In this document: piece after piece, positions 2,193-5,772 of the stretch | How positions within the stretch are numbered: position 1 is the first letter of the stretch | Layout: every line of letters starts with the position of its first letter | DNA from: a virus | Lineage: Duplodnaviria; Heunggongvirae; Uroviricota; Caudoviricetes | DNA: 11,709 nucleotides | Direction: 5' to 3' (one strand) | Virus record (IMG/VR): IMGVR_UViG_3300037455_000372 | Location: 1-11,709 of that record | Program-made: the position numbers and the translations under genes | Notes under the pieces: generated by a model | What the model saw: only the letters and a program-made list of their open reading frames with translations | Databases searched by the model: none | What the model was told of the DNA's origin: nothing

Positions 2193-3530
2193 ATGTCATA
2201 TAGAGGAATAGAAAACCTGAAATCCGCCGACGAAGTAGTCGAACTCACCCAAGAGCAGCGGAACACGCTCAAGCTCTGCCAAAACGACCCCTACCTGTTC
2301 ATCACTTCATTCGTGCAAACGACTTCCAAGGACGGCACCCACATATTGAAGCCCAGCCCCAGACAGCGAGCCGAGCTGGAAGTTCTGCAGAACCAGCGGT
2401 TCATCAAGTCGGACTGGTACAGACAGTCCGGCTACACGACCATCGTGCTCTCCTATTTCCTCTGGAAGGCGATGTTCACGCCCAATCTGGTACTGACCTA
2501 CTGCGCACCCAAGAAGGCTCAGGCGTACGCCGAGTTCGAGATGCACATCCGACAGGCCATCATCAGGCTCCCCTACGCCATCCAGCCCGGCGTCAAGACT
2601 TGGACGGAACACACAGTCACCTTCAAGAACGGAAGCTCCATCCTAGCGCGTCCAGCAGACCAGAAAAGCATATCCGGGTTCGCGTCCGACTACCTTTTCA
2701 TCGACGAGTTCGGATGGCTGACCGACAAGAAGATGCTGGAACTCACCCAGTCGGAGTTCGTGTGTATAAAGCACAGCGCACGTCGCCACCTCATCCTTGC
2801 CAACTCCCAGATATTCAGCGCACATTCAGAGGCCAACACCCTGTTCTGGAAGAACGGCGACATACCGTTCTACGCCTCCGTCAACACTTGGTGTGCCACA
2901 ACCAAGGAGGAAGAGGAGTTCGAGCAGAATATGAGGAAGTATATGGGCGACAAGGCTTTCGAGGCCGAATACGTCGGCATAAAGAAAGACCCCGAAAAGA
3001 AGAAGCTGTTCTGGGCGGAGAAAATAGACAGCCTTCCGGACCTCGTGAAGAAGAACCACTGGAAGGCCACTTTCCATAGCCAGAAGGCCGACTGGAAGTG
3101 GATCCAGGACAATATGGCAGTGACATCTTTCACCAACAGCCAAGTCGAGTTCAACGGCAACATCTACCCCGGCGTGATACTTGGAGTCTCCGAGTACGAG
3201 GGACACCCGGTTAGCGGAATGGACTTGGGCGGACTGGTCAACGTCGACATCGAGTATTTCGACTGGAAGTACGGCAAGTCGGCCGGAAAGGTGAGGTACA
3301 AGTGCCTAGCACTGCCTTCTATGGTCGAGGCCGCATCGCTGGACTACAAGGAATCCGACCACAAGCCGATGACCAGCACGATAAAGCTGATAGTTGTGGA
3401 ACGGTTAGGATTAACCTACGAGAAGGCCGATGTCCCGGAAACCTCGTACGAGGAAATCTGCAACTACCGTTGCATCAGCAACTACAGGGAGTCGATATCG
3501 TCTTGGCTGGAAACCAACGTCAAGCTATAG
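2193..3530 (+). CDS. Terminase large-subunit (T4 gp17-like) ATPase paralogue, degenerate, fused to a non-nuclease C-terminal domain
   Basis: N-terminal CQNDPYLF, adenine-binding-like PSPRQ, Walker A position RQSGYTT (aa 77-83; canonical RQxGKT), FKNGSSI, Walker B YLFIDE (aa 167-172), and domain end MGDKAFEAEY. No RNase H-like nuclease motifs recognised after aa ~265. Confidence 0.75.
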   Translation: MSYRGIENLKSADEVVELTQEQRNTLKLCQNDPYLFITSFVQTTSKDGTHILKPSPRQRAELEVLQNQRFIKSDWYRQSGYTTIVLSYFLWKAMFTPNLVLTYCAPKKAQAYAEFEMHIRQAIIRLPYAIQPGVKTWTEHTVTFKNGSSILARPADQKSISGFASDYLFIDEFGWLTDKKMLELTQSEFVCIKHSARRHLILANSQIFSAHSEANTLFWKNGDIPFYASVNTWCATTKEEEEFEQNMRKYMGDKAFEAEYVGIKKDPEKKKLFWAEKIDSLPDLVKKNHWKATFHSQKADWKWIQDNMAVTSFTNSQVEFNGNIYPGVILGVSEYEGHPVSGMDLGGLVNVDIEYFDWKYGKSAGKVRYKCLALPSMVEAASLDYKESDHKPMTSTIKLIVVERLGLTYEKADVPETSYEEICNYRCISNYRESISSWLETNVKL

Positions 3531-3533
3531 GAC

Positions 3534-3749
3534 TCACTTGCGGTCGGTGCATTCGTAGTGGAACTTCTGCTGCAGAAGCTTCAATTCGTAGTTCAGGCTG
3601 TCGATCTGGTGCCTCTGTCGGTCGTTAACGACGCGTAGGCACTTGTTGTTGTCTTCAATGATGTCGCCACGGCAACCGTTCTCAATAGTAGGTTCCGTGC
3701 AGCCCACGAACAAGAAGCCCAAAATCGAAATAGCTATCAGCTTCTTCAT
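3534..3749 (-). CDS. Small lipoprotein
   Basis: MKKLIAISILGFLFVG-C: basic N-terminus, hydrophobic core and lipobox Cys. Start placed at 3749, 2 nt after the upstream stop. Confidence 0.75.
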   Translation of the reverse strand: MKKLIAISILGFLFVGCTEPTIENGCRGDIIEDNNKCLRVVNDRQRHQIDSLNYELKLLQQKFHYECTDRK

Positions 3750-3751
3750 AC

Positions 3752-4048
3752 TCACCACCTAGATGCGCAATAATACGCCAAGTTCTTATAGCTCAACTGT
3801 CCGTTCTCAGTGACGACCTCGCGGCCTTTCTCGGTACGCTTGGCCATCTTGCGGCATTCCCAACGGATGGTCTTTCCGAAGATGCTGGTACCGAACCAGC
3901 AGTAACCGTTCGTCTCCCCTGCGGAGAAGTAGTGTACCAGAGTGTCCTTGGTAGCCGGGTTCCATACCGTGAACTGGTGACAGGTACCGGATTCGGCAAG
4001 GCCGTAGCCAGCCAGTAGACAAACGAGAATCAGTAGAGTCTTCATCAT
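3752..4048 (-). CDS. Small secreted protein with signal peptide
   Basis: MMKTLLILVCLLAGYGLA-ES signal peptide; mature part contains several Cys. Confidence 0.75.
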   Translation of the reverse strand: MMKTLLILVCLLAGYGLAESGTCHQFTVWNPATKDTLVHYFSAGETNGYCWFGTSIFGKTIRWECRKMAKRTEKGREVVTENGQLSYKNLAYYCASRW

Positions 4049-4061
4049 ATAAATTTCGCGC

Positions 4062-4349
4062 TTAACCGCGCTTTTCCTTCTTGAGTTCCGTAGAAATTCC
4101 GGTCAGACGCACGACAACGGATTTTTCGCAATTCCAGCACTTCGCTACAATCTTGGAATGGTTATCGAACATATCACGCAATGGATATGCGTGGGTACCT
4201 CGTGCGTTGCAGTGCGGACACTCCCAAGTGATTTCAGCCGTGATAGGAAAGGTCACTTGAGTTGCCTTGACTTTTAGCATTCCTCCGTGATTCAACGGGC
4301 CGGGTTTCCTCTGGATTTTCTCAGTATCTCGCATATTTTCAATAGTCAT
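4062..4349 (-). CDS. Zinc-ribbon protein
   Basis: CPHC...CWNC pairs flanked by beta-strand-like segments. Start moved to ATG 4349, which lies 6 nt after TATAAT. Confidence 0.7.
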   Translation of the reverse strand: MTIENMRDTEKIQRKPGPLNHGGMLKVKATQVTFPITAEITWECPHCNARGTHAYPLRDMFDNHSKIVAKCWNCEKSVVVRLTGISTELKKEKRG

Positions 4350-4355
4350 ACCACA

Positions 4356-4401
4356 ATTATAGCAATCCGATATGGACAGCGCAATAGCCAATTGCTATAT
4401 T
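4356..4401. promoter_or_regulatory. Overlapping divergent sigma70-type promoters
   Basis: Minus: TTGCGC(4379-4384)-17-TATAAT(4356-4361)-6-ATG. Plus: TGGACA(4373-4378)-17-TATATT(4396-4401)-6-ATG. Both -10 boxes are preceded by TTGC. Confidence 0.75.
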
Positions 4402-4407
4402 TTGAAT

Positions 4408-4446
4408 ATGACAGCTGACGAAGCCAGAAGCCAGAGGTTAATATGA
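4408..4446 (+). CDS. 12-aa leaderless upstream ORF (MTADEARSQRLI)
   Basis: ATG lies at the predicted +1; its TGA overlaps the next ATG (ATGA). Confidence 0.45.
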   Translation: MTADEARSQRLI

Positions 4447-4598
4447 GTTCTAGTTACGAACAATACTGGGCAGCGTGCGACCCGTACGACGCGTTCTTGT
4501 CCAAAGAAGAAAAGGAAAAGCACGAGACAGAAGTCTTGGCAAACCATCCGGAATATTTAGAACGGCTGAATAGTTCAGACAACACTAGAGAGGATTAG
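4443..4598 (+). CDS. Small acidic hypothetical protein (51 aa), below the ORF-track cutoff
   Basis: MSSSYEQYWAACDPYDAFLSKEEKEKHETEVLANHPEYLERLNSSDNTRED; SD-like GAGG upstream; fills the gap downstream of a promoter. Confidence 0.65.
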   Translation: MSSSYEQYWAACDPYDAFLSKEEKEKHETEVLANHPEYLERLNSSDNTRED

Positions 4599-4627
4599 CA
4601 ACTATATCGGCTTCTTGCCATTCAATT

Positions 4628-4667
4628 AAAACAATAGGGGCATCCAGCGTCGACACTGGATGCTCCC
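4628..4667 (-). terminator. Intrinsic terminator for a minus-strand transcript
   Basis: GGG-A-GCATCCAGTG-TCGA-CGCTGGATGC-CCC followed by TATTGTTTT on the minus strand. Confidence 0.75.
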
Positions 4668-4881
4668 ATGACATACACATCCTTGGTAATAAGGAGAGCG
4701 GGATGTCGGCCAATAATTTGGTAATTGGCTAACCTCCGTGCATAACATTCACGGTGACGGGCCGACTACCTTTAACGAGCTGTTTCGGCCTCGTCTTAAT
4801 TCCGGACAGATGTCAACCGCTTTTGACATCCTACCAGACTCTTTGCTCGACGGCTTCCAGAGAACCACCAATGGAGCCTGT
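4628..4881 (-). ncRNA. Candidate ~250-nt structured ncRNA, family not recognised
   Basis: Bounded by a promoter (TTGGCA-18-TATATT, +1 at A4881, no ATG there) and a terminator. Only a weak 26-codon internal ORF noted. Contains multiple stems and an H-type pseudoknot. Confidence 0.6.
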
Positions 4882-4959
4882 ACCGAAAATATAGCAAAGT
4901 CTGAGCTATTTTGCCAACTAGTTGCTAAAATTTGCCAACTTGTTGCTATATTTTCGGTA
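4881..4959. promoter_or_regulatory. Divergent promoter pair formed by a perfect 17-bp inverted repeat TTGCTATATTTTCGGTA
   Basis: 4943-4959 (+) and 4897-4881 (-) are identical. The last A is the A of ATG 4959 on + and the first base of the ncRNA candidate on -. Confidence 0.75.
4910..4951 (+). repeat. Tandem 21-bp imperfect direct repeat
   Basis: TTTGCCAACTAGTTGCTAAAA / TTTGCCAACTTGTTGCTATAT (18/21 identical); the first copy contains the palindrome CAACTAGTTG. Confidence 0.7.
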
Positions 4960-5186
4960 TGTACTCATTTATTGTCGAACATCTGGGCGAAGAAGGCACT
5001 TGGTGGCTGGTTCTGTGCATAGTCGAACTGTCGATATTCTGCTTCTTCGAGATGTTCTCGATCGTCTTCGAGACAGCCGACGACGGCGTAACCCCGACAC
5101 CGAAGACGTTCAGGAACTACCAGATATTCGTGATAATCAGCGTGGCCGTATCGACCATATTCTTCATCGCTTGCCATTACTTGTAG
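4959..5186 (+). CDS. Small two-helix membrane protein
   Basis: 75 aa from ATG 4959 (6 nt after TATATT); hydrophobic WWLVLCIVELSIFCFFEMFSIVF and YQIFVIISVAVSTIFFIACHYL. Confidence 0.7.
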   Translation: MYSFIVEHLGEEGTWWLVLCIVELSIFCFFEMFSIVFETADDGVTPTPKTFRNYQIFVIISVAVSTIFFIACHYL

Positions 5187-5772
5187 GAGTCAGCTTCAGC
5201 CGCATACCACGGCTTGCCGAACCGACGAGGTCGGCCTCGAACTCGTGGCCTATGGGGTAGCCGTATGAACTCTTGTCGTTCCATTCGTAATGAACCTTGA
5301 AAAGGAACACGGTGGCGTAGTACGTACCGTCGTCCCTGCGGTGAACGGTCAGACCGAGTCCGCTGTAGTAGCTGTAGTCACGGTTATACCGATCCAGAAT
5401 GCATTGCGTGTCCACGTCTCGCCAATGGTATTTCCCGATGTAGAAGATGCACCTGACGCCTACATTGGCCTCGTTTCCGTACCATTTGCTGGAATCGTTC
5501 AGATCGTCGGTATATCTGAGATTGAGGTAGAAATCGTAGAACTGTACGTTCGGAACCTTCAAGAACACCTTGTCCTTGGTTATCCTGACCCGTAGATCCC
5601 TCAAGGCGTCGATTATACGCTTCTTGCGTGCCGAATCCTTGTTGACTTGCGCCGTACATTCGGCCAGACCGACGACTCCGGCTCCCAGATACGATACGTT
5701 CGGCCAGTACCGGTTCAGCTTGTCTCGGCGGGTCTTCCTTTCAGGCGGTATAAAACGTGGGTCTCTTTTCAT
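5164..5772 (-). CDS. Hypothetical protein (start uncertain: ATG 5772, TTG 5835 or ATA 5838)
   Basis: Long ORF with Tyr/Asp-rich beta-type C-terminal half; no recognised domain. Confidence 0.7.
   Translation of the reverse strand: MKRDPRFIPPERKTRRDKLNRYWPNVSYLGAGVVGLAECTAQVNKDSARKKRIIDALRDLRVRITKDKVFLKVPNVQFYDFYLNLRYTDDLNDSSKWYGNEANVGVRCIFYIGKYHWRDVDTQCILDRYNRDYSYYSGLGLTVHRRDDGTYYATVFLFKVHYEWNDKSSYGYPIGHEFEADLVGSASRGMRLKLTPTSNGKR

Follow-up and report, generated by a model that had tools for sequence, protein, structure and literature searches.

A predicted structured non-coding RNA carried as an accessory cassette by a lineage of rumen jumbo phages

The minus strand of positions 4628-4881 of the window (the whole stretch of DNA analysed, 11,709 nt, at the start of an IMG/VR phage record of 355,392 bp) seems to encode a non-coding transcript of about 250 nt, predicted to consist of six hairpins in a chain followed by a terminator. 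The interpretation that we favour, and hold with moderate confidence, is that of an autonomous non-coding RNA gene belonging to a rumen jumbo-phage lineage, where it would travel as a promoter-bounded accessory cassette and act in trans. That the RNA is both accessory and restricted to this lineage is probable, as far as can be predicted from sequence.

Results

That the element is borne by a phage, as held in the preliminary description of this DNA, is confirmed. The genome (93% complete, 49% GC) carries a T4-type terminase-like gene at 2193-3530 of the window, a tnpB at 2-853, an HNH/NUMOD3 nuclease and, at 48-70 kb, 40 tRNA genes, with the RNA lying 43 kb away from this tRNA cluster. The proteins encoded on either side of the RNA form clusters on many metagenome contigs (exact look-up in a collection of 15 billion proteins), and from the contigs bearing these small proteins, together with one metagenome pattern scan, we obtained 17 distinct full-length variants of the RNA. 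These are 87-98% identical and, like all relatives with the element, stem from rumen or bovine metagenomes.

The predicted promoter of the RNA (4881-4917, minus strand) is composed of a -35 TTGGCA (4917-4912), an 18-nt spacer and a TG-extended -10 TATATT (4893-4888), with A4881 as the predicted +1. It includes the 17-mer TTGCTATATTTTCGGTA (4897-4881), which had been described as an exact inverted repeat, and the inverted pair is real, there being exactly two copies in the 355-kb genome, 4897->4881 on the minus strand and 4943->4959 on the plus strand. The last base of the plus-strand copy is the A of an ATG; the minus-strand copy is followed by ACAGGCTCC, and the predicted RNA start reads ACAGGCUCC, with no ATG. 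Both copies belong to a promoter class (TTGACA-17-TGnTATATT) of the canonical sigma-70/sigma-A extended -10 type, of which the genome holds 26 strict copies, 16 of them with an ATG exactly at +1 and nine followed by short purine-rich Shine-Dalgarno leaders (AAAGGA/AGAGG). Only the copy at 4897(-) starts the GC-rich and ORF-less ACAGGCUCC, with neither a +1 ATG nor a Shine-Dalgarno leader. Going by this sigma-70-type class, the RNA would be expressed early. Read from the sequence, the members of the class with a +1 ATG could also amount to systematic leaderless early-type transcription in this jumbo phage. A Bacteroidota host, first read from a TAnnTTTG-type promoter, was dropped because the promoters match TTGACA-17-TGnTATATT.

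At the other end lies a predicted intrinsic terminator (4628-4669, minus strand), with a 13-bp GC-rich stem, the loop UCGA and then UAUUGUUUU. The strong terminator claimed earlier is thus there, its stem at 4663-4640 counting 10 bp, or 13 bp with the GGG/CCC extension, before CCCUAUUGUUUU. Both the terminator call and the U-run are found on the minus strand only, and the pairing of the stem survives one-sided changes at pairs 216-249, 217-248 and 224-241, with one A.C mismatch in the L029 variant. The promoter and the terminator are intact in 17 of 17 variants, as would be expected from the stand-alone unit that had been proposed. Downstream of the terminator follows what seems to be a remnant of the next promoter, GGCAAGAAGCCGATATAGTTGCTA (4596-4622, minus strand), which contains an inverted 10-mer, is cut at 4596 and marks the border of the cassette.

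The claim of strong folding was borne out, the stability being specific to one strand and exceeding what composition alone would give. The minimum free energy of the 262-nt minus strand is -99.8 kcal/mol, as opposed to -75.1 +/- 4.3 for dinucleotide shuffles (z = -5.76), and none of 200 such shuffles folds as well; across the variants z ranges from -2.1 to -5.9. When the whole genome is cut into 3552 windows of 254 nt on both strands, the GC-corrected energy of the RNA ranks 7th. The antisense strand reaches only -86.7 kcal/mol, and the sense strand is the more stable of the two in 13 of 14 variants; this difference of 13 kcal/mol points to an RNA, with its G-U pairs, rather than to DNA palindromes. 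Windows of the same genome that fold even better after GC correction lie at G000:C1 around 244.0-245.1 kb, at 159.8-160.3 kb and at 16.6 kb, and none of these three strongly folding regions has an Rfam match at E<=0.01.

All the hairpins described earlier (4838-4801, 4754-4736, 4729-4709 and 4706-4677, plus the 4795-4760 region) were recovered at their places in both the minimum free energy fold and the consensus fold. Hairpin 1 (4852-4878, minus strand as for all that follow; columns 4-30 of the alignment) has the invariant apical loop UUGGUGGUUCU and falls within the nearly invariant first 48 nt. Hairpin 2 (4801-4838, columns 44-81) keeps a 6-bp core, AUGUCA/UGACAU, and has hypervariable internal and apical loops. 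In the region of hairpin 3 (4756-4795, columns 87-126) the stem GGCCGA/UCGGCC is supported. The stems of the next two hairpins are invariant: CCGUG/CACGG in hairpin 4 (4736-4754), whose loop is lengthened by 1 nt and carries substitutions in one clade, and GCCAAU/AUUGGC in hairpin 5 (4709-4729), whose loop keeps UUACCA, varies in the remainder and also takes a 1-nt insertion in one clade. Hairpin 6 (4670-4707, columns 177-214) varies by 2 nt in the length of its loop and keeps ACC there, its inner pair 192-201 changing from U-A to C-G. The idea that the AUUACCAA loops matter as such found no backing, their invariant part being ACC(A) only.

Some of these stems show signs of compensation. Pair 93-121 of hairpin 3 is G-C in eight variants, G-U in eight and U-A in one; pair 192-201 of hairpin 6 occurs as U-A and C-G; and pair 7-27, when U7 is read opposite column 27 in hairpin 1, is U-A in seven variants, U-G in eight and C-G in two, with no mismatch. 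The covariation score is 0.046, where shuffles reach 0.040 (3/500) and slid controls 0.014-0.034, in an alignment that is only about 5% divergent. Two pairs changed on both sides are equalled by 17 of 500 shuffles, the slid controls giving 0-1, and, owing to the many joint changes in one clade, 5.5% of the pairs drawn at random from variable columns seem compensated. Pairs 56-69 and 88-125, G90 and one pair of the terminator are broken in single variants, and pair 94-120 of hairpin 3 in two. Two to three compensated pairs in such a shallow alignment are only suggestive. Variable columns make up 23 of 158 paired and 26 of 100 unpaired positions (p=0.033) when the fold is taken from the window sequence alone, the same test with the consensus fold giving 16 of 150 and 33 of 108 but being biased, and the three indels found among the variants (+1, +1 and -2) all fall in apical loops.

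Two of the pairings put forward in the preliminary description are not supported. The stem of the H-type pseudoknot (4795-4760) shows no covariation, and changes at G90 break both this stem and its nested alternative. The pairing of the 5' GCUCC with GGAGC at the base of the terminator is broken by U7>C, a change that is compensated inside the local 5' hairpin. Columns 90 and 102 of alignment A4 (window 4792 and 4780), which look unpaired, change together in two lineages, from G/G to C/U in L004/L029 and to U/U in L047; no standard pair accounts for this, and the joint change may reflect a tertiary contact or recombination.

In 13 loci where the RNA and the neighbouring 75-aa gene are both present, the mean pairwise divergence of the RNA is 5.9%, compared to 10.1% at third and 5.2% at first plus second codon positions of that gene. 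The constraint is uneven along the RNA, divergence being 2.0% in columns 1-48, 17.2% in hairpin 2 and 4-6% elsewhere, so that relative to the third positions of the neighbour the ratio is about 0.6 overall and 0.2 for the first 48 nt. Hairpin 2 (here columns 49-82, window 4833-4800) outpaces even these third positions, yet its 6-bp core stem is kept. These figures bear on the possibility that the cassette is decaying or neutral, i.e., a promoter and a terminator around a former gene or filler, kept by short divergence times and giving a functionless transcript. In its favour, the RNA can be missing (L002, L088/L089), is restricted to one close lineage, has no significant covariation and includes a hairpin evolving faster than third codon positions. 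Against it stand the reduced divergence, most marked in the first 48 nt, a fold that is extreme for the genome and stronger on the sense strand, indels that avoid the stems, three compensated pairs, and a promoter and a terminator kept in every variant; we regard this possibility as unlikely, though worth keeping in mind.

The RNA contains no conserved ORF, and its homologues do not keep a reading frame, in agreement with the non-coding character first proposed. Its region lies within the largest gap among the small genes, as had been remarked, and no credible ORF is found in 4599-4958. The six internal ORFs of the RNA region have no match in the collection of 15 billion proteins (exact look-up), where both neighbours are present; the gene tables of the retrieved contigs call no sense-strand ORF inside the RNA, and only in L008 does a call overlap the RNA, that of an antisense ORF of 42 aa. 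A 3' frame (ATG 4748) is shifted by the +1, +1 and -2 indels, and because of these its C-terminal half is wholly different between variants.

The frame that deserves closer attention is one of 40 aa starting at TTG 4871, or of 26 aa if it starts at an invariant ATG (columns 53-55), in both cases ending at TGA 4749; the RNA would then be the mRNA of a small protein, with the hairpins as its 3' UTR. Twelve of 14 variants keep the 40-aa frame open, several of its changes are synonymous (columns 49, 76, 79, 115 and 121), and the phage is rich in very small genes. Against this, the L004/L029 clade (five fetched loci) has an in-frame TAA, and the variable columns are spread over the three codon positions as 3, 11 and 9, in contrast to 16, 9 and 25 in the neighbouring 75-aa gene. 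Its replacements are radical ones (K>M, V>D, G>V, G>D), and the first 48 nt are invariant except for two columns, would-be third positions included. Unlike genes of the same promoter class, the transcript offers neither a +1 ATG nor a Shine-Dalgarno leader, its candidate start is buried in a GC-rich hairpin, and, as said, no sense-strand ORF is called there. A small-protein mRNA is thus decidedly unlikely, and we return to a non-coding RNA.

No hallmarks of several well-known RNAs (tRNA, tmRNA, RNase P, SRP, 6S, hammerhead) had been seen, and no known family emerged from the searches. With cmscan at gathering thresholds, the whole window has no match among the 4227 families of Rfam 15, which cover tRNA, tmRNA, RNase P, SRP, 6S, group I/II introns, riboswitches and T-box, as well as self-cleaving ribozymes, phi29 pRNA, HEARO, IS605-orfB, GOLLD and ROOL; ARAGORN finds no tRNA or tmRNA. 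At E<=10, the region 4400-5100 gives only a chance miRNA match on the terminator (19 bits, with a threshold of 100). BLASTN in distant mode finds no match to the RNA in GenBank phages, and none of its exact 21-23-mers occurs in IMG/VR. Searched for as DNA or by model, the RNA is absent from two close IMG/VR relatives, and a covariance model (R1) has no match in nine IMG/VR relatives whose terminase-like proteins are 34-95% identical, a set that includes two relatives at 95% and, at 37%, a 253-kb phage that is 99% complete; near the terminase-like gene of three further loci at 50-57% identity, R1 finds nothing either. There is no second copy in the phage's own genome (BLAST and R1). The metagenome pattern scan returned 33 matches, of which those confirmed by the RNA profile (nhmmer) are all close relatives and the others inspected lie in unrelated sequence, whereas a scan of a genome collection gave a single match, in a Planctomycete MAG, judged to be due to chance. 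A literature search on jumbo phages, non-coding RNA and the rumen brought up nothing relevant. Since no distant homologues were found, the family seems to be confined to one close phage lineage. The suggestion of an undescribed class holds insofar as no catalogued family matches; less in its favour are the single close lineage, the dispensability of the RNA and the weak covariation.

The surroundings of the RNA change from contig to contig. On the terminator side it is flanked by 51-aa, 91-aa or 183-aa genes, and on the promoter side by 75-aa, 67-aa or 85-aa genes, or by none. In the window, the divergent neighbour is a leaderless gene (4959-5186, plus strand) for a hydrophobic protein of 75 aa, which is no fixed partner, being found with no adjacent RNA in L004-L006 and L088/L089, just as the RNA is also found beside other genes. 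In L004/L029 the whole block corresponding to 4624-4919 has been relocated beside tnpB and a 115-aa gene. A clean case is that of L090 compared to L088/L089, where both neighbours are common to all and the RNA is present only in L090, the indel being bounded by two AGTTGCTATATTT promoter copies. Elsewhere breakpoints fall at 4596, 4624, 4914-4919 and 4941-4961, and the borders of the unit coincide with homology breaks; position 4596 is both the insertion point of a convergent 51-aa gene cassette and the homology break in loci of the L007-L014 type, the second promoter copy being intact in L090. Repeated promoters at the flanks and presence or absence in close strains are what characterizes promoter-bounded shuffling cassettes of the T4 PeSL type. 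By genome comparison, the RNA is dispensable, because it is missing from L002 (with a 95% identical terminase-like protein), from L088/L089 and from all the more distant relatives searched.

Such mobility could also be that of a DNA-level element, either a site for recombination, replication or packaging close to the terminase-like gene or an IS200/IS605-type PATE moved by phage transposases. Inverted repeats abound, the block moves between contexts, tnpB is nearby (at 2-853 of the window, and beside the RNA in L004) and iteron-like repeats adjoin the RNA. G-U pairs, however, make the fold clearly better on one strand than on the other, the borders lie in promoter copies and not in IS ends, no other site of the genome, IS ends included, shows any likeness to the RNA, and the terminator U-run together with the promoter has the logic of a transcript. 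We consider a DNA-level element most improbable.

The RNA could instead act in cis, as a leader or attenuator whose terminator controls read-through into the minus-strand genes downstream, much as riboswitches and T-boxes do. Its size and its multiple hairpins are aptamer-like, and in loci of the L007, L014 and L090 type it lies directly upstream of minus-strand genes. The identity of the downstream gene varies (91-aa, 183-aa or 66-aa), though, and in the window a convergent plus-strand gene takes its place; each downstream gene is leaderless and starts from a promoter of its own just past the terminator; U7>C contradicts an antiterminator-like pairing of the 5' end with the terminator; and none of the riboswitch or T-box models gives a match at E<=10. 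A cis-acting leader is therefore very unlikely.

Discussion

If the autonomous RNA gene is real, a sigma-70-type promoter with a TG-extended -10, of the same class that would drive many of the small leaderless genes of the phage, would start the RNA and an intrinsic terminator would end it. The transcript would fold into a row of hairpins, with a near-invariant 5' hairpin and first 48 nt, two ACC(A) loops and a hypervariable hairpin 2. The cassette would be shuffled among neighbours by way of the promoter copies that bound it, and lost in some strains, like the hyperplastic small-ORF cassettes of T4-type phages. The RNA itself might act in trans, as a regulator or decoy whose invariant exposed loops would bind a protein or RNA of the host or of the phage, and probably early, in host takeover or counter-defence and not in core replication. 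A search of the phage genome found no extended complementarity to the RNA, and whole-length duplex energies between the RNA and neighbouring mRNAs were uninformative.

RNA cassettes running from a promoter to a terminator with no ORF are a known kind in phages. The closest parallels in large phages may be RNA C and RNA D of T4, discrete and structured but non-essential RNAs encoded within the tRNA cluster and released by processing of the cluster transcript. Like these, the RNA described here would be a structured, ORF-less RNA of 100-250 nt encoded by a large T4-like phage with many tRNA genes; unlike them, it is far from the tRNA cluster (43 kb), has its own promoter and terminator and bears no Rfam likeness. 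As regards its mobility, it resembles the PeSL-type early-promoter cassettes that Arbiol and co-workers are said to have described in 2010 in the hyperplastic regions of T4-type phages. These too are small units bounded by repeated early promoters and stem-loops, shuffled, gained and lost via recombination at promoter copies, but they carry small ORFs where the present cassette carries an ORF-less structured RNA.

Other known RNAs share less with it. The phi29 pRNA (RF00044) is, as the RNA described here would be, an early phage RNA of comparable size, encoded near packaging genes and with a potential for loop-loop pairing, but its model does not match here. Strains whose terminase-like gene is 95% identical do without our RNA, so that it cannot belong to the indispensable parts of the motor. 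With GOLLD, ROOL and the omega RNAs of TnpB/IscB it has in common that these are structured RNAs often carried by phages, and this phage does have a tnpB; it is, however, much smaller than GOLLD and ROOL and matches neither in Rfam. A TnpB omega RNA/reRNA was rejected: in L004 the RNA lies on the strand opposite to tnpB and about 320 nt away from it, and in the window the two are 3.8 kb apart; the RNA shows no similarity to other sites of the genome. Pseudo-ToxI, type III antitoxins and RNA decoys are similar in being phage-borne accessory structured RNAs, possibly pseudoknotted and located in a variable region; the present RNA, however, has neither tandem repeats nor a toxin gene partner, and is unrelated to them in sequence.

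A number of further identities were tried and discarded. A type I toxin-antitoxin system would require a fixed linkage to a toxin, whereas the RNA is found beside 75-aa, 115-aa, 67-aa or 85-aa genes or none, and it has no match of >=12 nt to 4959-5200 (short-word BLAST). A ToxI-like type III antitoxin is contradicted by the lack of tandem repeats and of a constant downstream gene, and a riboswitch or T-box leader by downstream genes that differ and have their own promoters, as well as by U7>C, which breaks the pairing of the 5' end with the terminator. A DGR template, a tracrRNA/anti-repeat and an IS end were rejected too, with no fixed partners, repeats or matching sequences.

Within the autonomous RNA reading, a decoy role is plausible, and one may speculate on what it would capture. 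The invariant 5' loop UUGGUGGUU holds two overlapping UGGU, and in T-box bulges UGGU pairs with the NCCA 3' end of the tRNA. The RNA might, at a stretch, stand for a new class of counter-defence or takeover decoy, in which this loop and the ACC(A) loops would capture or mimic tRNA acceptor ends and hairpin 2 would be a strain-specific module; we put forward this specific version as a very long shot.

The small accessory cassettes of large phages tune host takeover and the evasion of defences, and the attention given to them has gone almost entirely to proteins. The cassette described here would be a clean natural case of an RNA cargo that is moved about by the promoter-based shuffling known from protein cassettes. 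Strains with and without the RNA share a habitat, and a near-invariant 5' domain is combined with a single hypervariable hairpin; if expressed, the RNA would offer a tractable entry to the role of orphan phage RNAs, with an immediate reach limited by its narrow distribution and by the lack of a cultured host.

The neighbourhood of the cassette has features of its own. Between the divergent promoters lie two 21-nt direct repeats, TTTGCCAACTWGTTGCTA (4910-4951, plus strand), which overlap the plus-strand promoter and look like a candidate operator for a dimeric regulator. Each of them contains the palindrome CAACTAGTTG, the pattern GCCAACT[AT]GTTGC occurring nowhere else in the 355-kb genome, and the repeats are kept in L002, which has no RNA. 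Copies of tnpB (OrfB_IS605/Cas12f1-like TNB) sit at different insertion places in close strains (2849-4114 in L004, 2-853 in the window), one of them directly adjoining the RNA cassette, and one relative also has a Y1 transposase and a sigma-70-like gene. The convergent 51-aa gene and its leaderless promoter (window 4366-4595) form a cassette themselves, missing in contigs of the L007-L014 type, the breakpoints (4365/4366 and 4595/4596) falling within promoter sequence; a mini-ORF of 12 codons, also leaderless (ATG 4408), overlaps the start of this gene (ATGA at 4443). In L002 the slot between the conserved flanks holds about 2.7 kb instead, including a minus-strand ORF of 579 aa (3091-4830).
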